From: an uncultured Candidatus Saccharibacteria bacterium
Lineage (GTDB): Bacteria > Patescibacteriota > Dojkabacteria > J137
Length of the DNA stretch: 64,000 bases
NCBI GenBank assembly: GCA_964437465.1
Contig: CAYTGI010000001.1
Coordinates: 5,614 to 69,613, forward strand
Reading direction: 5' to 3'
The notes under the pieces were generated by a model. The model was not told where the DNA came from, did no database searches, and saw nothing but the letters and a program-made list of their open reading frames with translations. Positions 38,063 to 52,909 of this stretch are shown here, piece after piece. Each line of letters starts with the position of its first letter. Within the stretch, counting starts at the first letter, position 1. The position numbers and the translations under genes were made by a program.

Positions 38063-39124
38063 ATGTTTGAGGAGATTTTTAATAATAATACACCACAAGA
38101 TTATATAATTTCTTTAATGATCATGGCTACTGGTGTAATTATTGGAACGTTTATTCAGTTTATCGTTGTAAGGAAATTTAGCCAGTTAACAAAAAAATCT
38201 CGAAATAGCTCTGATGATAGAATAATTAAGGCAATTGGGAATAGTCCGCTATTTTTTTCAATTTTGATTTCTCTTTTTCTAACATCGATATCACTTGGTC
38301 TAAGTGCTTCTTATAGATCTGGATTAAATAGTTTTTTGATTGCTACAGGGATATTAATCGGTACAAGTGTATTAGCTAGAATTTCTACTGTAGGTGTAGA
38401 AACATACCTACAAAATCAGAGTGGAGGTGGTGAATCTTCCTCGTTATTTAAAAATGTTGGTAGAATTATTACTTATGTTATTGGTCTATTAGTCATATCC
38501 CAAACTCTAGGGATTGATATAACAGCAGCTCTTACAGCACTAGGAGTTGGGGGAATTGCAGTAGCCCTTGCACTACAAGATACACTTTCAAACCTTTTTG
38601 CAGGTTTTTATATTATTGCTGCAAGAAAAATAGTACCAGGAGATTATATTGAACTTAGTTCTGGGGAGAGGGGATATGTTGAAGATATATCTTGGAGAAA
38701 CACTACTGTTAGAACTTTACAAAACTACATTATTATTATTCCAAACGCTATACTTTCAACTGTAATCTTAACTAATTATGATTTACCGATTACAGATGTA
38801 GCTATTTTAATGAATGTCGGTATTAGTTACGATTCTGATTTAGATTTTGCGGAGAAAATTACAATAGAAGTTGCTAGAGAAGTAATGAGGGAAGTTGAAG
38901 GAGGAATTAAAGACTACGAACCATTTATTAGATATAATGAGTATGGTGACTCAAGTATAAATTTTACAGTTATTATGAGAGGTAAGACTTATGTTGATAA
39001 ATATCTTATCAATCATGAATTTATTAAAAGACTTCATAAAAGATACAGACAAGAAGGAATTGAATTCCCTTTCCCTCAATTAGATGTAACATTGAAAAAT
39101 CCTGTTAAAATAGAGAAATCTTAA
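38063..39124 (+). CDS. Mechanosensitive ion channel, MscS family
   Basis: LALQDTLSNLFAGFYIIAARKIVPGDYIEL with three preceding TM helices. Confidence 0.85.
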   Translation: MFEEIFNNNTPQDYIISLMIMATGVIIGTFIQFIVVRKFSQLTKKSRNSSDDRIIKAIGNSPLFFSILISLFLTSISLGLSASYRSGLNSFLIATGILIGTSVLARISTVGVETYLQNQSGGGESSSLFKNVGRIITYVIGLLVISQTLGIDITAALTALGVGGIAVALALQDTLSNLFAGFYIIAARKIVPGDYIELSSGERGYVEDISWRNTTVRTLQNYIIIIPNAILSTVILTNYDLPITDVAILMNVGISYDSDLDFAEKITIEVAREVMREVEGGIKDYEPFIRYNEYGDSSINFTVIMRGKTYVDKYLINHEFIKRLHKRYRQEGIEFPFPQLDVTLKNPVKIEKS

Positions 39125-39771
39125 AGTCTATAACTATCTTTATTTTCAAGTGCTAATTTCATCTCAGAAATAAATCTATCTTTTGCATCCTCAATCGATA
39201 TCCCAGATATATTTCCTCCACCTGCACCAAAATGGCCTCCTGCTTTAAAACCAATAGATTCAAGTACTCGTTGAATTGAAACATTATCTCCAAAATTCCT
39301 AGTACGCCATCCAACCATTACATCTCCTTCAATATTGGTTTCAAACATTATCCCATAGTTATATCCAACAACTATTCTCATAAAAACTTCTACATAGTAT
39401 TTATGTATGCTTTTTAATCTCCAGTTTTTGCCAAATCTTTCTATTAAAATATCATCTTTTTCTTTATCAATGATCAATATAGTTGTTTCTATTTCAGGTT
39501 GAAACTCTGAGTTTTCTATTCCAAAAGCTAAAAATTCCATACTATCCTTATCGACGCTTAAGTTCACAACTTCGTCGTGCCTTGCTCCGTATTTAATCAT
39601 CTCCTCTGCAAAAGTATATATACCTGGATACATTTCATTTTTGAAATATCTAGAATCATCAATAAGTGCATAATACATCCATGTAGCTACATCTTCAGTT
39701 GGTTGTACATTTGAATCTTTAATTAGATGGTCAAAGATAATTTTAGTAGTACATATATCATCTTTTCGCAA
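39121..39771 (-). CDS. DHH-family phosphoesterase (NrnA-like), C-terminal DHHA1 portion
   Basis: GGHFGAGGG DHHA1 motif; first codon is a TTG adjacent to an A-run; forms one gene with 39723..40169. Confidence 0.6.
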   Translation of the reverse strand: MRKDDICTTKIIFDHLIKDSNVQPTEDVATWMYYALIDDSRYFKNEMYPGIYTFAEEMIKYGARHDEVVNLSVDKDSMEFLAFGIENSEFQPEIETTILIIDKEKDDILIERFGKNWRLKSIHKYYVEVFMRIVVGYNYGIMFETNIEGDVMVGWRTRNFGDNVSIQRVLESIGFKAGGHFGAGGGNISGISIEDAKDRFISEMKLALENKDSYRL

Positions 39772-40169
39772 AGCAATTGAAACATCATCATGAAAGCTAT
39801 TGTATGATGGTCAATAGATATAAATTTATCTAGACCTACTTTTTCCAAAACCTCATTATATTTATTTGTTAGAAGAAGAGGCCATGAGGAAGAATCTACT
39901 AAAATAATAAGGTCATATTCTTCCCAATTAACTTTTCCAACTTGAGACTGATCAATTTGATTAAGGTTAGGGAATGATTTTAATTTTTCAGGTATAGAGG
40001 AGAATATTACCAAGCTAGAAGATTTAGAAAACTCATTCTCAATCCACCATTTTATTGTTAACCCACTTCCTAAAGAATCCGGATCGACAGGTCTTGAACA
40101 TATAATCAGAATATTTTTAGAATCTTGAATCCTTTTATATATTTGTTTAGAGATATCTTTTAGATCCAT
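39723..40169 (-). CDS. DHH-family phosphoesterase (NrnA-like), N-terminal DHH portion
   Basis: DPDSLGSG, ILVDSSS and SIDHH motifs; the frame ends 20 codons after DHH while the next frame carries the DHHA1 half. Confidence 0.6.
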   Translation of the reverse strand: MDLKDISKQIYKRIQDSKNILIICSRPVDPDSLGSGLTIKWWIENEFSKSSSLVIFSSIPEKLKSFPNLNQIDQSQVGKVNWEEYDLIILVDSSSWPLLLTNKYNEVLEKVGLDKFISIDHHTIAFMMMFQLLCEKMIYVLLKLSLTI

Positions 40170-41667: not shown

Positions 41668-42079
41668 CTCCAAAGTCTCAGAAGTTGATGATCTAATTGA
41701 TGATTATGATCTTATTGATGAAGAATTATTAGAAGAGGAATTTTCAGATGGATATGAAGAAGGATATGAGGCAGCAAAAAAAGAAGTTACAGGTGAGTTA
41801 GAACCTAGAGCTGAAACTATAGCTGAAAGTAACTCAGATTCTATTTACTCAAAAAGAGAAGACACAAGAAGCCGATTAGCTATAATCTATACTGTTCTTA
41901 CTTTTATAATTTTCTTTTCAGGAATGCTTATTGCTGTTGTAGATGGATTAGCTAGAAATGTAAGTATAATTGAAAACCTTGAAGTAATTATTCCGTTGAT
42001 CTCCGGAGTTTTCTTAGGAACTTTAGGTTTTGTCCTTGGATATTACTTCCGAAAGGCAGAAAAGGATGATGTTGTATAA
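41651..42079 (+). CDS. Hypothetical acidic protein with a C-terminal membrane anchor
   Basis: Acidic N-terminus (DDLIDDYDLIDEE) and two C-terminal TM helices. Confidence 0.35.
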   Translation: MSDQDNSKVSEVDDLIDDYDLIDEELLEEEFSDGYEEGYEAAKKEVTGELEPRAETIAESNSDSIYSKREDTRSRLAIIYTVLTFIIFFSGMLIAVVDGLARNVSIIENLEVIIPLISGVFLGTLGFVLGYYFRKAEKDDVV

Positions 42080-42085
42080 TCCATC

Positions 42086-42514
42086 ATGTCGCTACAAATA
42101 TTAATCCCTAAAACATCAAAAAAGGTAAAACTACCATTTTTTGGGACATCAGTTAACGCTGGCTTCCCAAGTCCTGCTGATGACTTCGTAGAACGTAAGC
42201 TTGACTTGAATGAATATTTAATAAAGCATCCAGCCGCAACTTTTTTTGTTAGAGCAACAGGGGATTCAATGAAAAACATAGGGATTCATTCAGGAGATTT
42301 ACTTATTGTTGATAGATCCCTTGATGTTGTAGATGGAAAAATTGTTATAGCTGCAATTGACGGTGAATTTACTGTAAAAAGAGTAAAAAAGATTAATGGG
42401 GAGTTATTTCTTGTTCCTGAAAACGAGAACTATAAACCGATAAAGATAGATAGTGAGGATGAGTTTCAGATCTTCGGTGTTGTTAAGAATGTTATAAAGA
42501 ATTTGTTAAATTAA
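42086..42514 (+). CDS. umuD: UmuD-like S24 peptidase (LexA C-terminal domain fold, no HTH)
   Basis: ATGDSM Ser motif, a Lys in FTVKRVKK, a candidate Ala-Gly cleavage site (VNAGFP); 142 aa. Confidence 0.75.
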   Translation: MSLQILIPKTSKKVKLPFFGTSVNAGFPSPADDFVERKLDLNEYLIKHPAATFFVRATGDSMKNIGIHSGDLLIVDRSLDVVDGKIVIAAIDGEFTVKRVKKINGELFLVPENENYKPIKIDSEDEFQIFGVVKNVIKNLLN

Positions 42515-42650
42515 ATAAATATATATATTAGTGTATTTTTATAGCTGATTCTAAGATGATGGATGTAATGGCAGATGACAATTATGATTATGATAATTCA
42601 CCTGAAGAGAATGATCATGAAAGGCTAAGAGATCTTCTTGAAGGTGAAGA

Positions 42651-43457
42651 TTAATATAAAATAGTTAAAAACTTTAATTTTACTGCATCCTTTCCCACAA
42701 GCAACTCTTTAGTTATTTCTATTTTTTCTTTTTTCCGTAGGTATAAATACCTATTTAATACACATACCTGAGCAGCGTTTCTCATAATTACTGAAGCAGG
42801 ACAATGTACATATCTGGTAGGGTTTGCAGAAGCTTTGGCTCTGAAGTAGTTTGGAGCATAATAAGTTGTTAATCTTGTTTGTAACTCATTAAAAAAATCT
42901 AATGGACTGAGTTGAAAAGGCATATTCTCTAAAAGTTTATTAACTTTACCTCCTTGCGAAGAGATAATTCCATGCTCTCTTAAAATCTCAAGATAATAAT
43001 CATCTGACAACATACTAAATCTGAAGCCTGAATTTCTAAGCGGGTCAACAATAAGCGCTGCTTGATGTCCATAGTTTCCCGCAAACAAATGAATATGTCG
43101 TAAGAATGTACTTACTTCACCTGCGTAACTATCTGACACCTGGTTCAAAACTCCTTCTGTTCTAAATTCTTCAATAAAGGCAGGACCTAAAACAAGCGCG
43201 GCAGACATTGCATTCTGCCATCCAATATTATATTTAGATATCCAGTTATCTGCTACTGCAATCATACCTACAATTTCTCCTGTTAATCGTCTTACTATTT
43301 CATTACGATCTCCTGGGTAGTAAGTGTAATGAGCACCATTTTCTGTAAGAGTTCTAATATCCATACTCGGAACAACACCTTTTGACAAAGCATCATCTAA
43401 ATACTTTCTTTTTGAACCTTCATAGTTATCTGGCTTTTCCTCAAAAATGTCAGGCAT
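42651..43457 (-). CDS. Hypothetical protein (268 aa) inserted on the opposite strand between umuD-like and the Y-family polymerase gene
   Basis: Open frame with no recognisable motif. Confidence 0.4.
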   Translation of the reverse strand: MPDIFEEKPDNYEGSKRKYLDDALSKGVVPSMDIRTLTENGAHYTYYPGDRNEIVRRLTGEIVGMIAVADNWISKYNIGWQNAMSAALVLGPAFIEEFRTEGVLNQVSDSYAGEVSTFLRHIHLFAGNYGHQAALIVDPLRNSGFRFSMLSDDYYLEILREHGIISSQGGKVNKLLENMPFQLSPLDFFNELQTRLTTYYAPNYFRAKASANPTRYVHCPASVIMRNAAQVCVLNRYLYLRKKEKIEITKELLVGKDAVKLKFLTILY

Positions 43458-43488
43458 ATTGATATAATTAAGCTAGAAATTTTAACAG

Positions 43489-44766
43489 ATGAAACAAAGG
43501 GTATTTGGTTTAATAGACTGCAACAACTTCTTTGCTTCCTGCGAGCGTGTATTTGACCCTAAACTGATTAGAAAGCCTATTGCGATTCTTTCTAACAATG
43601 ATGGTTGTATTATCGCAAGATCATCGGAAGTAAAAAAAATGGGGGTGCCTATGGGTGCCCCTCTTCATGAGTGGAAAGATTTGATTGAGCGAAATCATGT
43701 AAATATTTACTCGGCTAACTTTCACCTTTATGGAGATATGTCAAATAGAGTTATGCAAATCTTAGAGAAGTTTTCTCCTGATGTTCAAGTTTATTCAATA
43801 GATGAGGCGTTTATTGACTTAACTCACGTTAAAACAGGAGATCTTTATGAATATGGCAAAAAGATTAGGGATACAATTATGAAATGGACAGGACTTCCGG
43901 TTTCTGTTGGAATAGCTTCTACTAAAACACTGTCTAAAATTGCTGTTGAACATGCTAAGAAAAATGAAGAAGATCAAGGTTGTTATGTTTTAGATTCTGA
44001 AGAAAAGATTAATAACTATTTAGACACACTTCCAGTTCAAGAAATTTGGGGAATAGGGTACAGGCTTTGTATGAGACTAAACGGACAGGGAGTATACACT
44101 GCTCTTGATTTTAAAAAGCTAGATGAGCGAAAAGTTAGACAAGACATGAGTGTGACTGTTCAAAGAACTTTAAATGAATTAAATGGAATTCATTGTATCG
44201 AAGGAGTTGAAAATAAGGAAACTAAGAAACAGATAATTAGTTCTAGATCTTTTGGAAGAAGGGTCACTTCTTTGAGTGAACTAAAAGAGTCGGTTGCAAG
44301 TTACGTAGCGAGAGCTTCTGAAAAGCTAAGAAGACAGGGTTCTGTCGCAAGTTTTATAGGAGTTAGTGTAAGAACAAATAAATTTGCGAAAGATGAAAAA
44401 CACTACCATAATTCATACTATATGAGCCTAGAAACACCAACAGATTATTTAGCAGATCTAACTAAAGCTGCACACTTTTGTTTAGAACAGATTTATAGAA
44501 AAGGAGTTGTCTATAAAAAATCAATGGTACAATTAGGAGGATTAGTCCCAAGAGATAGTCAAAAAATTAATATGTTTGATCCTGAGTATGATACTGAGAA
44601 AAATAAGATAGTTATGGGGGCTTTTGATCAAATTAATAAAGAGTGGGGAAGTGGAACTATTAAAACTGCCGCGATGGGGAATAAGCAAACATGGAAAGCT
44701 AAAAGCAATCTAAGAAGTCCAAGGTATACGACTAGTTGGGAGGAGATAGTGAAAATTAAGAATTAA
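43489..44766 (+). CDS. Y-family DNA polymerase (UmuC/DinB)
   Basis: IDCNNFFASCERVFDP and SIDEAFIDLT motifs. Confidence 0.9.
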   Translation: MKQRVFGLIDCNNFFASCERVFDPKLIRKPIAILSNNDGCIIARSSEVKKMGVPMGAPLHEWKDLIERNHVNIYSANFHLYGDMSNRVMQILEKFSPDVQVYSIDEAFIDLTHVKTGDLYEYGKKIRDTIMKWTGLPVSVGIASTKTLSKIAVEHAKKNEEDQGCYVLDSEEKINNYLDTLPVQEIWGIGYRLCMRLNGQGVYTALDFKKLDERKVRQDMSVTVQRTLNELNGIHCIEGVENKETKKQIISSRSFGRRVTSLSELKESVASYVARASEKLRRQGSVASFIGVSVRTNKFAKDEKHYHNSYYMSLETPTDYLADLTKAAHFCLEQIYRKGVVYKKSMVQLGGLVPRDSQKINMFDPEYDTEKNKIVMGAFDQINKEWGSGTIKTAAMGNKQTWKAKSNLRSPRYTTSWEEIVKIKN

Positions 44767-46306
44767 TAATTACCTATAAACTTCCTTGCCTCTAAAATTT
44801 CATCCTCAACTAACTCATGACCACCTTCATGAATAAATGTTGACACCTCTGCAGCTCTTTCAGAAAGTAGTCGCTCTAGACGGTCAATTTCGTCAGGCGT
44901 TCTAAGATAAATATCTTTTTTACCGCTGGTAATAAAAATATTAGTTCCAAAGAGATCTATTTCTTCAGGTTCAAAAGGGATCATTGGATGAAATAAAATT
45001 GCATTTTTTACTATTCCTGGATTTTTAAGAATAAAACTAAGCGCAAAATTAGCTCCATTTGAATAACCTACAAAAATTGCTTTATCTAAATTAACTTTAT
45101 CTTTCATTTTTTCTAAAAAGCTTTTTAACTTATCTACTTCAGAAAAAATACTTTCCTCTCTAAAAGTACCATCAATATTTCTTTCAAAAAATCTTAATAA
45201 GCCTTCTTCATTAATATTTCCTCGAAGTGACAGAATATTTGCCTTGTCGTCTAAACACATAGCAAGAGGAATTAAATCTCTTTCATTTGCTCCAGTTCCA
45301 TGAAAAAGAATTAAGGTTTTGTCTGAATCGTTATTAATGAATCTATAGGTAAATTCAATTTCTTCTTCCTCTTCATGATTCTCTTCATTAGTAATTATTG
45401 GGTTAAGCATCGCCTCGTAATATTTTCTATTGGGTTCGTACTGTGAGGGTAGTTTTAAATCTTCACCTAAAGTCTCTATTGATTCATCTATTAGCATTCC
45501 TGGTGGATCTGTAGCTATCTCAAAAAGAATTCCTCCTGGTTCTTTAAAATAGACTGAATGAAAATAATTTCTATCTATTACAGGTGTTGGACTCAAATTA
45601 TCCTTTTCAATTTTTTTTCTTAATTCAATTTCTTTAGTATCATCTTTAGCTCTAAAGGCAATGTGGTGAACTGTACCTGCACCTTGGATTCCTTCTGGCC
45701 ACCCCTTCATTTCGAATATATCAATTACGTTACCAATTTTGTGATTCTTATCTTTAAATCTTGTATGAAAGCCTTCAGAATCGACTTCTTCAAAATCAAA
45801 GAATTTTTCTAAAACTTTTTGAGTTGGTCCTTTAAGACCTACTGAAAGTTCTGCTCCAAAGAATCCTCTAATTGCATATTTCTTGTCTACTATTTTGTTC
45901 CAAATATCAATATTTTTATCTTGATCATTCATAACAAGCTCAAGTTGGAGTCCATCAAAATCGTAAAAGGTCAAAATTTTATTACCAAACATCTCTGAAG
46001 GTTGTTCGTGTTTTACACCATGCTTTTGTAATCTTTCTATCCAAAAACCCATAGATTCTTTAGGAATAGAAAACATTATTTTAGTAACTTGTCCTATGCC
46101 TCTCATTCCCGTTCCAGCATCTTCGAAGGGAAAAAGCGTCATTAAAGTACCGGGGTTTCCTTTTTTATCTCCAAAGTAAAGATGGTAAACATCAGGAGCA
46201 TCAAAGTTAACAGTTTTTTCACAAACCTTAACCCTAAGACATTAGTATAAAAATCATAAGTCTTTTGAGCATTGGAACTGATTGTTGTTATGTGGTGAAT
46301 TGACAT
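44763..46306 (-). CDS. Fusion of a two-domain VOC (glyoxalase/ring-cleaving dioxygenase, MhqA/MhqE-like) protein with a phospholipase/carboxylesterase (MhqD-like alpha/beta hydrolase). The N-terminal ~55 codons are in a different frame (frameshift in a T6/A6 run at 46214-46219)
   Basis: Track ORF 44763..46142 begins in mid-VOC domain. Upstream, in a frame offset by one nucleotide, the minus strand reads MSIHHITTISSNAQKTYDFYTNVLGLRFVKK, and after the A6 run continues TVNFDAPDVYHLYFGDKKGNPGTL straight into MTLFPFEDAG. VHHIAF and LILFHGTGANERDL...GYSNGA motifs. Confidence 0.65.
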
Positions 46307-46363
46307 ATAAGATATTAACCTACATTTTTGAACATTTTATGAATTTATTTTCCTTTCATGTTT

Positions 46364-46686
46364 ATTTTGATACAAGATACTTAACATTTTCAAACTCGAA
46401 AATATGAAAATCTGTATTTAAACTGATTATTTCTTTATTTGGTCTAATCATATTAATTTCACGTTCACCCTTTTTATGTACAATTCAATTTAAAAGAATT
46501 TTTCTTTTTTGAGCAAAACTACCTGGAATAAAATCAACAACTCTTTTACCTATAATCTCATCCTCATTGTAGCCGGTGAGTGTTAATGCCTTTGGGCTGA
46601 CCCAATCAAAAGTTTGAGAGAAGGTATCCACTAATATCCGGATCTTCAATATACTCACTAGCTTTATTTAATAACTCTTTATTCAT
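46364..46686 (-). pseudogene. Decayed third tandem PAS-domain paralogue (two or more frame disruptions)
   Basis: Three frames together read MNKELLNKASEYIEDPDISGYLLSNF / DWVSPKALTLTGYNEDEIIGKRVVDFIPGSFAQKRKILLN / VHKKGEREINMIRPNKEIISLNTDFHIFEFENVKYLVSKI, which is co-linear with the two intact paralogues. Confidence 0.55.
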
Positions 46687-47020
46687 CAACAATTTTTGCG
46701 ACAATATATAAAACTCTATCTAAAGTAAAGATTCTAAATTCAGCTTCGATAGGAAATTCTTCTCCTTTTGAATTTTTAAAAGTTATTTTCCTTTGCCCTT
46801 TTTTAGATGAGATCAAATCAAGAAGGATTTTTCTAGATTCGTTTGGAGTTGTTGTTAGGTAATCATAAACTTTCTTAACTTCTAATTCTTCTTTAGAACA
46901 GCAAAACATATCTAGAGCTTTATCACTAACATACTCGAATGTGGCTGAGTACATATCAATTATAAAATCTGGTTCTGTAAAAAATTCATTTCCTTTTTCA
47001 AATACTTCTTTTTTAAGCAT
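46679..47020 (-). CDS. Single-domain PAS protein
   Basis: 113 aa; paralogue of 47026..47376 (PDFI(I/V)DM...WVS...IV(A/S)KI). Confidence 0.6.
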   Translation of the reverse strand: MLKKEVFEKGNEFFTEPDFIIDMYSATFEYVSDKALDMFCCSKEELEVKKVYDYLTTTPNESRKILLDLISSKKGQRKITFKNSKGEEFPIEAEFRIFTLDRVLYIVAKIVDE

Positions 47021-47025
47021 AGGTA

Positions 47026-47376
47026 TTATTCTATAGTTACTTTTTCAATTATTTTCGAAACTATATACATAGTATTTTCATGAGTAAATGTTTGAAATTC
47101 AGTTTTAAGAATACTTTCACCACCATCTTTTCGATTAATCTTTAATTCTCTTTCTCCAGAATCGTTTACAATTCTATCTACTACTTCCTTTCTCTTTTCA
47201 AAAAAAGTTCCTTTTAGAAATTTTGTTGCTTGTTGACCTACTAACTCACTCTCTTCGTATCCACATAATTCCAAAAGTTTTGGACTTACCCATTGAAGTG
47301 TTACGTCAAACATGTCGACTATAAAGTCTGGGGAATCTGAAAGTTCTTTTGCTTTTGAGAGTAGGTCTTCTTTCAT
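47026..47376 (-). CDS. Single-domain PAS protein
   Basis: 116 aa; paralogue of 46679..47020. Confidence 0.6.
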   Translation of the reverse strand: MKEDLLSKAKELSDSPDFIVDMFDVTLQWVSPKLLELCGYEESELVGQQATKFLKGTFFEKRKEVVDRIVNDSGERELKINRKDGGESILKTEFQTFTHENTMYIVSKIIEKVTIE

Positions 47377-47406
47377 ATGCGGCTTTTCAAGGAGTTAAAT
47401 TAATTA

Positions 47407-47480
47407 TGGAGCCGGAGGGAATCGAACCCACAACCTCATGAATGCCATCCATGCGCTCTAGCCAATTGAGCTACGGCCCC
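47407..47480 (-). tRNA. tRNA-Ala (anticodon GGC)
   Basis: Manual fold gives a 7-bp acceptor stem with G3:U70, D-arm GCTC/GAGC, anticodon loop AT-GGC-AT and T-loop GGTTCGATTCC; no encoded CCA. Confidence 0.85.
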
Positions 47481-47529
47481 TATTTGTAATTATACTCTAA
47501 CTTAATAAAAGGGTATAATTCAATGCTTT

Positions 47530-49299
47530 ATGAAAAATATAATTAGATTACTAAAAATTTCCAAACCATTAAATGGAATAATGTACTTCATTCTATTTCT
47601 TTCTATTTTTACTGGAATTTTAAGTCAGATAATACCTATTGTATCAAAAGTTGTTGTTGATGAGATTCAAAAGAATATCCAAACTGGTGAAGGGAATATA
47701 AACTACATGTTTATGTTTATTAGTATTGGCTTTGGATTAAGTATACTAAATGTGGCTTTAGGTTCAGTTTCTCAAAGAGTTGGAGATCATTTTGGTGGGG
47801 AGTTAAGAAGATTTTTAATCTCAAAATTTTATAATCATATCTTTAGATTGCCACAAAGTTATTTTGATACAGAAATCTCTGGGAAAATTGTTAATCAACT
47901 AAACAGGGGAATTGTTTCAGTTCAGGGGTTTATGAATGCTGCTTCGAATTTTATCTTTCCAAATATTCTGCTAAGTATTTTCACAATCATAACAATGTTT
48001 ATCTACAGTCATCCTGTAGCTATTTTTACAATAATACTTTTTCCAATTTATACATATCTAAGTTACTACTCATCTAAAAAATGGGGTGAAGAAGAAGTTA
48101 AGAAAAATAAACATGAAGATATAACAAGAGGAAGAATTCAGGAGGTTATTACGAATATGAAGCTGGTTAAAGGATATTCCAATCAATTAAATGAATATAA
48201 ATTTGTTGATAAGGAGCAGGCTACAGTAAATAAAATTTATGCAAAGCAAAGTAGGACATTCCATATCTTTGATTTTCTAAGAAACTTTAGTTTGGAGCTG
48301 ATTCTTTTAGGCATGAACGTAGTTATTTTCTACAACGCATTTCAAGGAAACTACACTTTTGGAGATGTTGTTTTATTAATGCAGCTAATTATGCAAATTA
48401 GGAGACCTCTTTTTGCAATGTCATTTATTCTTACACAGTTACAGCAAACTGAAGCTGGTACTAAAGAATTTTTTGAAATTTTAGATTTACCAGAGATTGA
48501 AAACTATGAAGACTTCAAAACTGATATAGAAGTTAAAGGAGCGTCTTTAGAGTTTAAAGATGTTTCTTTCCACTATGATCGATCTGATGAAACTGTATTA
48601 AAGAATCTAGATTTAAAAATTCAAAAAAATGAGAAAGTTGCATTAGTTGGGCATTCTGGAGCTGGTAAATCTACTCTGATTAACTTAATAATGAAGTTTT
48701 ACGATCCATCAGAAGGTGAGATTTTAATTGATAAGCATGAATACTCTAAATTATCTCATAACGAAGTTAGATCATTAATCTCCCTTGTTTTTCAAGAAAA
48801 TGAATTATTTTCTACAACAATTAGAGAGAATGTTGCGTATGGAATGGAAGTAAAGGATGAGGAAATAATTAAAGCTTTGAAGGCAGCTAATGCATGGGAC
48901 TTTGTAAAGAAGTTTAAGAAAAAATTGAAAACTGAGGTGGGTGAAAGAGGAGTTAGACTTTCTGGAGGACAGAAACAAAGAATTCAAATTGCTAGAGCTC
49001 TTTTACACGATAGTCCTATTGTTATTTTAGATGAGGCAACAAGCAACTTGGATTCTAAATCTGAGAACGAAGTTCAAAATGCTATGGAAGTATTAATGAA
49101 GGATAGGATTGTAATCATTATTGCTCATAGATTTTCAACTATTCAGAATGTAGATAAAATCATTGTACTTAGCGGAGGTGAAATTGTAGACTCAGGTACT
49201 CCAAAAGACTTGTCGAAGAAAGATGGTATATATCGAGATTTATTAAAATATCAGATAGAAGGAGATAAAAAACTGTTAGAGAATTTTGAATTATTTTAA
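47530..49299 (+). CDS. ABC exporter, fused permease-ATPase (MsbA-like)
   Basis: N-terminal 6-TM domain; Walker A GHSGAGKST, signature LSGGQKQR, Walker B ILDEATS. Confidence 0.9.
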   Translation: MKNIIRLLKISKPLNGIMYFILFLSIFTGILSQIIPIVSKVVVDEIQKNIQTGEGNINYMFMFISIGFGLSILNVALGSVSQRVGDHFGGELRRFLISKFYNHIFRLPQSYFDTEISGKIVNQLNRGIVSVQGFMNAASNFIFPNILLSIFTIITMFIYSHPVAIFTIILFPIYTYLSYYSSKKWGEEEVKKNKHEDITRGRIQEVITNMKLVKGYSNQLNEYKFVDKEQATVNKIYAKQSRTFHIFDFLRNFSLELILLGMNVVIFYNAFQGNYTFGDVVLLMQLIMQIRRPLFAMSFILTQLQQTEAGTKEFFEILDLPEIENYEDFKTDIEVKGASLEFKDVSFHYDRSDETVLKNLDLKIQKNEKVALVGHSGAGKSTLINLIMKFYDPSEGEILIDKHEYSKLSHNEVRSLISLVFQENELFSTTIRENVAYGMEVKDEEIIKALKAANAWDFVKKFKKKLKTEVGERGVRLSGGQKQRIQIARALLHDSPIVILDEATSNLDSKSENEVQNAMEVLMKDRIVIIIAHRFSTIQNVDKIIVLSGGEIVDSGTPKDLSKKDGIYRDLLKYQIEGDKKLLENFELF

Positions 49300-49607
49300 T
49301 GTCTAAAAAATACGAAAAAGACTCGAAAACTAGCTTCATAACTAACCAATTCATCCCTCAAAATGAATTAGACTTTCATATATATCCTAAGCTAGATCAT
49401 GTTGAAGTAGAAAAATTACTTAATGAATTTTTGGAAGATAACCAACTGATTGGAAATAAATTTCTTTTGGTAATTACAGGTAAGGGAAAATTAGTTCGCC
49501 CAACAGTCAGGAAAATACTTGGAAAACATCCTTTAGTAGAAAGTTTTAAAGTAGCTGGATACTTTAACGGTCAAGATGGTGCTTTTGAAATAATTGTTAA
49601 GGATTAA
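49299..49607 (+). CDS. Smr-domain protein
   Basis: LDFH...LLVITGKGK... pattern of Smr domains; translationally coupled to the ABC exporter gene. Confidence 0.6.
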   Translation: MSKKYEKDSKTSFITNQFIPQNELDFHIYPKLDHVEVEKLLNEFLEDNQLIGNKFLLVITGKGKLVRPTVRKILGKHPLVESFKVAGYFNGQDGAFEIIVKD

Positions 49608-52633: not shown

Positions 52634-52909
52634 ATGGAGATAATAGATATTTTTGGTAGCATAGGAGCAATAATTGCATTAATAGCATTTATTCTTATTC
52701 AAACTGATAGATTAAAAAATTCTGATTTTACGTATGATTTTTTAAATTTTTTATCAGGTTTTATATTGGCAATTTATGCTTATATAATCGCTTCCCTACC
52801 ATTCCTTATAATTAATTTGGTTTGGGCATCGTTTTCTCTCTTTGATCTTATTTTCAAAGATAGAAAGTCTTCATTTAAGAACGAGTTGAAGTCTTTCTTG
52901 AAAAAATAA
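52634..52909 (+). CDS. Hypothetical small membrane protein (91 aa)
   Basis: Two TM helices. Confidence 0.35.
   Translation: MEIIDIFGSIGAIIALIAFILIQTDRLKNSDFTYDFLNFLSGFILAIYAYIIASLPFLIINLVWASFSLFDLIFKDRKSSFKNELKSFLKK

Follow-up and report, generated by a model that had tools for sequence, protein, structure and literature searches.

The window analysed here is a 64,000-nucleotide stretch of contig CAYTGI010000001.1, from the genome of an uncultured member of the Dojkabacteria, a lineage of the candidate phyla radiation (CPR). On its minus strand, two open reading frames (ORFs) together encode what is predicted to be a single polypeptide, in which a two-domain VOC dioxygenase is fused to a carboxylesterase-like alpha/beta-hydrolase. 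The annotated 459-amino acid product starts at Met56, within the first VOC module, and its ORF shares one base (at 46142) with an upstream ORF of 54 amino acids. The two frames join at a run of six adenines (A6), which reads GTG AAA AAA CTG on the minus strand and T6 at 46214–46219 on the plus strand. Insertion of one A at this site produces an uninterrupted frame of 514 amino acids, and a −1 slip has the same result. The motifs VHHIAF (213–218), LILFHGTGANERDL, and GYSNGA all lie in this single frame, and no stop or frameshift occurs between the dioxygenase and hydrolase domains. The initial annotation had described a fusion of ~514 amino acids in one reading frame, an annotated ORF that begins in mid-domain, and a true N-terminus lying upstream, one nucleotide out of frame across the A6 run. 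Each of these elements, the ORF coordinates included, was borne out.

The short upstream ORF encodes the genuine N-terminus only as far as the A6 run. Residues 1–31 are 84% identical to residues 1–31 of the closest intact homolog, P0002 (BLASTP E 8e-17), and I3, H4, H5, F19, Y20, L24, L26, R27, and K30 of this segment are invariant across the family alignment. Beyond the run, the tail of the 54-amino acid ORF (LLTLMLLMFTIFTLEIKKETPVL) is without homology, and the downstream frame across the same bases (46142..46213) encodes the conserved TVNFDAPDVYHLYFGDKKGNPGTL. Extended back beyond its first ATG, the 459-amino acid frame reads ...KTVNFDAPDVYHLYFGDKKGNPGTLMTLFPF. The 459-amino acid product lacks residues 1–55, including the predicted metal ligand His5. 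With His5 missing and residues 32–55 encoded in neither ORF, no active dioxygenase is expected without correction of the frame. Termination-reinitiation at the TAATG overlap between the two ORFs could still deliver an intact esterase domain. TAATG is a classic termination-reinitiation arrangement; its occurrence here is probably coincidental.

Table 1. Features of the fused dioxygenase-hydrolase gene and of its surroundings (window positions; residue numbers refer to the reconstructed 514-amino acid protein).
Feature	Position	Strand	Remarks
Main ORF	44763..46142	−	459 aa, annotated product
Upstream ORF	46142..46306	−	54 aa, starts MSIHHITTISSNAQKTYDFYTNVLGLRFVKK
N-terminal coding segment, residues 1–31 (MSIHH...RFVKK)	46214..46306	−	Includes predicted Fe(II) ligand His5 (46292-46294)
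A6 homopolymer	46214..46219	−	Lys30-Lys31 codons; last A also opens the Thr32 codon of the downstream frame
Out-of-frame tail of 54-aa ORF (LLTLMLLMFTIFTLEIKKETPVL + TAA)	46142..46213	−	Overlies the true codons for residues 32–55
TAATG overlap	46140..46144	−	Stop of 54-aa ORF and ATG (Met56) of 459-aa ORF, one shared base
Rest of predicted dioxygenase, residues 32–308, two tandem VOC modules	45384..46214	−	Pfam Glyoxalase (two stretches); structure matches
Predicted ligands His215 and Glu263; also Tyr253	His215, 45663-45665; Glu263, 45519-45521	−	Mapped from PcpA
Linker, residues ~309–325 (NEENHEEEEEIEFTYRF), acidic	45333..45383	−	Length and sequence vary among fused homologs
Predicted MhqD-like alpha/beta-hydrolase domain, residues 326–514	44766..45332	−	NF047577 and structure matches
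Ser416 (GYSNGA), Asp465, His497	Ser416, 45060-45062; Asp465, 44913-44915; His497, 44817-44819	−	Invariant in alignment
Stop codon	44763..44765	−	4-nt overlap with end of convergent umuC-like gene
umuD-like S24 peptidase gene	42086..42514	+	
umuC-like Y-family polymerase gene	43489..44766	+	IMS, IMS_C, and DUF4113 domains
Three tandem PAS-domain paralogs	46365-47376	−	~115 aa, single PAS; upstream of fused gene, with tRNA-Ala
NrnA-like DHH phosphoesterase gene	39121-40169	−	Split into 148-aa and 216-aa ORFs
Smr-domain gene	49299-49607	+	Ortholog (55% identity) of L002 28-330

The two halves of the reconstructed protein were readily assigned by profile and structure matches. Pfam recognizes two Glyoxalase/VOC stretches in the dioxygenase part (PF00903, E 6e-15). 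Residues 1–308 are collinear with Bacillus subtilis MhqO (PDB 3oaj, residues 7–311; E 6.9e-76), and this alignment runs uninterrupted across the frameshift site; further structure matches are 1zsw (E 1e-56) and PcpA (4huz, E 1e-46). In the C-terminal third, Pfam detects weak matches to the alpha/beta-hydrolase families DLH and Abhydrolase_2, and residues 326–510 match the Bacillus cereus carboxylesterase 2h1i (E 2e-33), as well as 3b5e, 2r8b, and YahD (3og9). The E values for the best dioxygenase (6.9e-76) and esterase (2e-33) matches exclude chance similarity. The top NCBIfam model for the hydrolase is MhqD (NF047577; residues 327–509, model positions 10–193 of 195), at a score of 128.3 bits that falls below the equivalog cut-off.

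The residues expected of both active sites are retained. The Fe(II) ligands of PcpA are His11, His227, and Glu276, to which Tyr266 is added (PMC3204407). Alignment to 4huz maps these four to H5, H215, E263, and Y253, respectively. In the hydrolase, Ser416, Asp465, and His497 align to 2h1i; by the general pattern of alpha/beta-hydrolases, they are the presumed catalytic triad. All seven amino acids are invariant in 32 aligned fused homologs, and the reconstructed protein keeps every one of the invariant columns of that alignment (65/65). Homology thus identifies the N-terminal part as a putative Fe(II)-dependent two-domain VOC extradiol dioxygenase of the hydroquinone/quinone-detoxification type (MhqO/MhqE/PcpA lineage), and the C-terminal part as a putative MhqD-like Ser-Asp-His alpha/beta-hydrolase. 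The latter is, by its sequence, an MhqD homolog and not a demonstrated equivalog. These assignments agree with the initial annotation, which had named an MhqA/MhqE-like VOC dioxygenase and an MhqD-like carboxylesterase; the profile searches did not place the N-terminal half in an unrelated VOC subfamily.

The fusion of these two domains is a common and already annotated architecture, and it is not unusual. When 5.8 billion proteins were searched, the 459-amino acid ORF of the window itself (P0001) came up first, followed by 119 clusters. These best 119 clusters are all single polypeptides, 513–609 amino acids in length, with 97–100% query coverage and 40–65% identity, so that a search for the same fusion in other genomes, which the initial annotation had put forward as a check, found it widely. 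The clusters come from Dojkabacteria, Acetothermia, Gemmatimonadota, Deinococcota, Desulfobacterota, and Planctomycetota. NCBI names the fused proteins of Dojkabacteria, Acetothermia, and Gemmatimonadales 'VOC family protein', and the Joint Genome Institute (JGI) uses 'predicted esterase/catechol 2,3-dioxygenase-like lactoylglutathione lyase family enzyme'. Other Dojkabacteria genomes also carry intact fused orthologs, one of them being P0014 in CP129477.1, a 1.09-Mb chromosome. No conserved gene neighborhood was found among the Dojkabacteria relatives of the fused gene.

To place the fusion among its relatives at the level of genomes, one genome per species was scanned, which gave 598 stretches encoding relatives. 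The best 80 of the 598, together with the contig of the closest relative P0002 (L002), were classified by tblastn with each domain and by inspection of the junctions (81 loci in all). Continuous fusions account for 13 of the 81 loci (12 genome loci and L002), and in ~45 the esterase is a gene of its own immediately after that of the dioxygenase, proportions that are biased upward by the ranking of loci with a full-length fused query; the remaining ~23 are without an esterase inside 4 kb. The fusions are found in Gemmatimonadota, Trueperaceae, Desulfobacterales, Tepidisphaerales, and others, and the adjacent genes in Flavobacterium, Bacillus fungorum, Paenibacillus sepulcri, Xanthobacter, many Rhizobiales, and Bradyrhizobium, among others. 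The order, dioxygenase and then esterase, is the same in the fused and adjacent forms. Two of the fused loci, L003 and L008 (Gemmatimonadaceae/Gemmatimonadales), have a second, paralogous VOC dioxygenase motif (VKRSVNQD), which suggests tandem dioxygenase paralogs there.

That the two genes are fused in some phyla and adjacent elsewhere links the dioxygenase and hydrolase activities. In B. subtilis the corresponding genes reportedly form an mhqED operon. In the Staphylococcus aureus mhqRED operon, mhqE and mhqD are co-transcribed and quinone-induced, with methylhydroquinone inducing the pair up to hundreds-fold, and homologous MhqE and MhqD are named for B. subtilis (PMC6798810). The initial annotation took the fusion to suggest that the two enzymes act together. 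This idea is reasonable and is reinforced by the pattern of operon in some bacteria and fusion in others; as a proposal, it could already be read from the mhqED and mhqRED operons.

At the frameshift site itself, related loci conserve the motif V/I-K-K/R/Q-T-V-N-F-D. Seventeen intact homologs write Lys-Lys-Thr at this point as AAA AAA ACN, that is, as an in-frame A7 or A8. Past the A6 run, the window reads CT GTT AAC TTT GAT, in agreement with the closest homolog (ACT GTT AAC TTT GAT), which itself is in frame (GTA AAG AAA ACT). The A7 of intact homologs and the matching bases 3' of the run indicate that one A was lost from an ancestral A7. At the Lys-Lys-Thr site, all 85 related loci are free of a frameshift and encode V/I-K-K/R/Q-T in frame; the window copy alone carries a 1-nt deletion in this A-tract. 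The lesion bears the marks of an ordinary loss of one A from A7, without sign of recoding. The A7/A8 tract is a recurrent, built-in hot spot in this family for frameshift mutation and for homopolymer sequencing error. A7/A8 tracts for Lys-Lys-Thr occur also in genomes of 50–63% GC (guanine plus cytosine content); the loci that have such tracts are L004, L007, L010, L011, L024, L038, L039, L047, L058, L063, L066, L075, L078, L080, and L085.

We consider, with moderate confidence, that the locus represents a single Dojkabacteria gene from a widespread family of ~520-amino acid bifunctional proteins, and that its A7 tract has here been shortened by one A. On balance, the deletion probably also arose by real slippage, and very recently, in the population that was sequenced, whether it is inactivating or reversible. 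We take it to be very recent because the gene has no other lesion and retains all 65 invariant residues. The chief competitor, which we regard as possible though less likely, is that the A was dropped by an error of sequencing or consensus calling and that the organism has A7 and makes the full 514-amino acid enzyme. The source is a metagenome-assembled contig, the break falls exactly at the homopolymer where homologs predict A7, the gene has no further lesion, and its N-terminal stub, at 84%, exceeds the gene as a whole (65%) in conservation. Against an error stands the Logan assembly of SRR7048222, made by a different assembler, which is 100% identical over window positions 41763..47835, A6 included. 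In addition, 61 other A/T runs of 7–9 bases in the window sit within intact long ORFs; homopolymers are thus not generally miscalled, and pervasive homopolymer error was rejected as an explanation. Elsewhere in the window, a PAS-domain paralog is broken by a TGA nonsense codon and an NrnA-like gene by a shift outside any homopolymer (described below). These lesions are not explicable by homopolymer miscalls, suggest genuine gene decay, and so favor a real mutation. A search of JGI metagenome contigs for the A7 or A6 allele of the exact sequence gave no hits. Several points weigh against the view that we prefer. A homopolymer indel is a classic sequencing or consensus artefact, and the gene is otherwise as pristine as an artefact would leave it. 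The two assemblies probably share the same reads; their agreement excludes assembler error and leaves read-level error. The hydrolase score of 128 bits is far below the MhqD equivalog cut-off of 325, a literature search found no paper describing or assaying a fused dioxygenase-esterase, and we infer both the substrate of the hydrolase and its coupling to the dioxygenase.

The A6 run could instead be a functional site, at which −1 slippage of tRNA-Lys, transcriptional slippage, or A6/A7 phase variation would restore the full-length protein, with an esterase-only product made by reinitiation at TAATG. A −1 slip at GTG AAA AAA C gives exactly V-K-K-T, the next zero-frame codon is the rare CUG (2.8% of Leu codons), the shifted frame terminates in the TAATG stop-start overlap, and homopolymer tracts are known contingency loci. 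We nevertheless find this account improbable, since the 85 related loci are all free of the shift and the closest relative reads in frame here. The 89 nt 3' of the site have a minimum free energy of −9.1 kcal/mol as compared with a shuffle mean of −11.3 (z +0.87), and 166 of 200 shuffles fold at least as well. The zero-frame heptamer G AAA AAA C begins with G and does not conform to the canonical X XXY YYZ; the Lys codons in the A-site and P-site can re-pair. An A6 run is also short for efficient slippage by RNA polymerase. Programmed frameshifting in particular was rejected, on the absence of the shift from the 85 loci and on the negative test for downstream RNA structure. Slightly more improbable still is the specific proposal that the A6/A7 tract serves this ultra-small CPR bacterium as a contingency switch that can revert, or as a site of leaky −1 slippage. 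If that were true, the tract would switch expression between the full-length dioxygenase-esterase and an esterase-only product, the latter made by reinitiation at TAATG, and a quinone-detoxification enzyme would be phase-variable in a lineage from which regulation of this kind is not known. Least plausible of all is a naturally split system, in which the 54-amino acid peptide and the 459-amino acid protein would reconstitute the enzyme. The two ORFs do abut with a stop-start overlap, but neither product includes residues 32–55 (TVNFDAPDVYHLYFGDKKGNPGTL) as encoded in the native frame, among which eight positions are invariant, and no homolog is split at the equivalent place. In effect, the sequence itself refutes such a system.

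In keeping with a Dojkabacteria host, the named relatives of the DnaE encoded in the window (at most 69% identity) are all Candidatus Dojkabacteria. The GC content of the window is ~32%. Long ORFs (DnaE, 1183 amino acids) and a coding density of ~94% hold under translation table 11, on which ground an alternative genetic code, considered on account of the in-frame TGA of the PAS paralog, was rejected. A Shine-Dalgarno-like 4-mer at −20 to −4 precedes 3 of 42 predicted genes (longest-ORF starts), and TAA is the dominant stop (27 of 42).

Downstream, the umuC-like gene converges on the fused gene with a 4-nt overlap. With the umuD-like gene it makes up an SOS-mutagenesis-type pair in a small CPR genome. 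Y-family polymerases in general are known to promote −1 frameshifts in homopolymers. Upstream, the two distal copies of the PAS array are intact (47026..47376 and 46679..47020). The third copy (~46365..46700), directly upstream of the fused gene, has a frame change after ~17 codons and an in-frame TGA (KILLN*IVHKKGEREI), and is otherwise 43% identical to its intact neighbor over 90 residues. By its sequence, this copy is evidently a pseudogene. The NrnA-like gene has an apparent 1-nt frameshift near 39795–39810 (GACCATCATACAATAGC), which is not a homopolymer. When rejoined, its 349-amino acid protein aligns continuously to structures 3dev and 8iu7, and the Pfam DHH match is extended from model positions 1–74 to 1–124 of 125.

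Among 24 ORFs scanned at 33–53 kb, a set that left out the 94-amino acid intergenic ORFs upstream of the fused gene and a 91-amino acid ORF (52634..52909), none was recognized as a MarR-type regulator or a quinone reductase. In the closest relative (P0002, L002; 65% identity), the Smr-domain gene adjoins the fused gene. The two are 3 kb apart in the window, where an ABC transporter gene, a tRNA-Ala gene, and the PAS paralog array lie between them, which suggests insertion or rearrangement between the two lineages. Repeats around the locus were limited to AT-rich chance matches, and Rfam detected only two tRNAs within the window.

The reconstructed protein may be compared with several known systems. 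With MhqO/MhqE/MhqA (3oaj) and PcpA, the 2,6-dichlorohydroquinone 1,2-dioxygenase of Sphingobium (4huz), it shares a collinear VOC fold of ~300 residues, and the Fe(II) ligands and Tyr are kept. However, these enzymes are stand-alone proteins of ~300–335 amino acids, whereas the window protein has a C-terminal hydrolase and its dioxygenase domain is interrupted by the frameshift. The hydrolase domain has the same Abhydrolase_2-type fold, GYSNGA elbow, and Asp and His as MhqD (mhqED, mhqRED), 2h1i, and Lactococcus lactis YahD (3og9). As in the MhqD operons, it is coupled to an MhqE-type dioxygenase that comes first, but by covalent fusion instead of as a separate gene. Members of the fused 'VOC family protein' family (P0014 and those of Gemmatimonadales, Acetothermia, and Trueperaceae) have the same domain order, length, and invariant residues, and the window copy differs from them in its 1-nt deletion. 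A VOC-fold dioxygenase followed by an alpha/beta-hydrolase that acts on the ring-fission product is also seen in XylE/XylF and BphC/BphD. The functional logic may be similar, although these belong to different subfamilies of both folds and are separate polypeptides. No direct homology evidence for C-C bond cleavage by the window hydrolase domain was found.

In intact members of the family, the ring of catechol or of a (methyl/chloro)hydroquinone would be opened by the dioxygenase, whose reactive fission product the tethered Ser-hydrolase would then process. Candidates for the hydrolase step are a lactone, acyl, or ester intermediate, or C-C hydrolysis. The fusion would ensure 1:1 stoichiometry and proximity of the two active sites.

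For this genome, the analysis amounts to a correction of annotation: the deposited 459-amino acid product is a truncated reading of a gene for a 514-amino acid bifunctional enzyme, and it is without one metal ligand. For the family, the pattern of fusion in some bacteria and operon in others (a 'Rosetta-stone' pattern) is good comparative evidence that the MhqD-like hydrolase acts on the product of the MhqE/MhqO-type dioxygenase. This argument for a functional link is independent of the broken copy in the window, and the architecture had already been catalogued. The result modestly strengthens the case that MhqE-type dioxygenases and MhqD-type hydrolases are functionally linked. The fused proteins may provide convenient single-polypeptide material for working out MhqE/MhqD chemistry.

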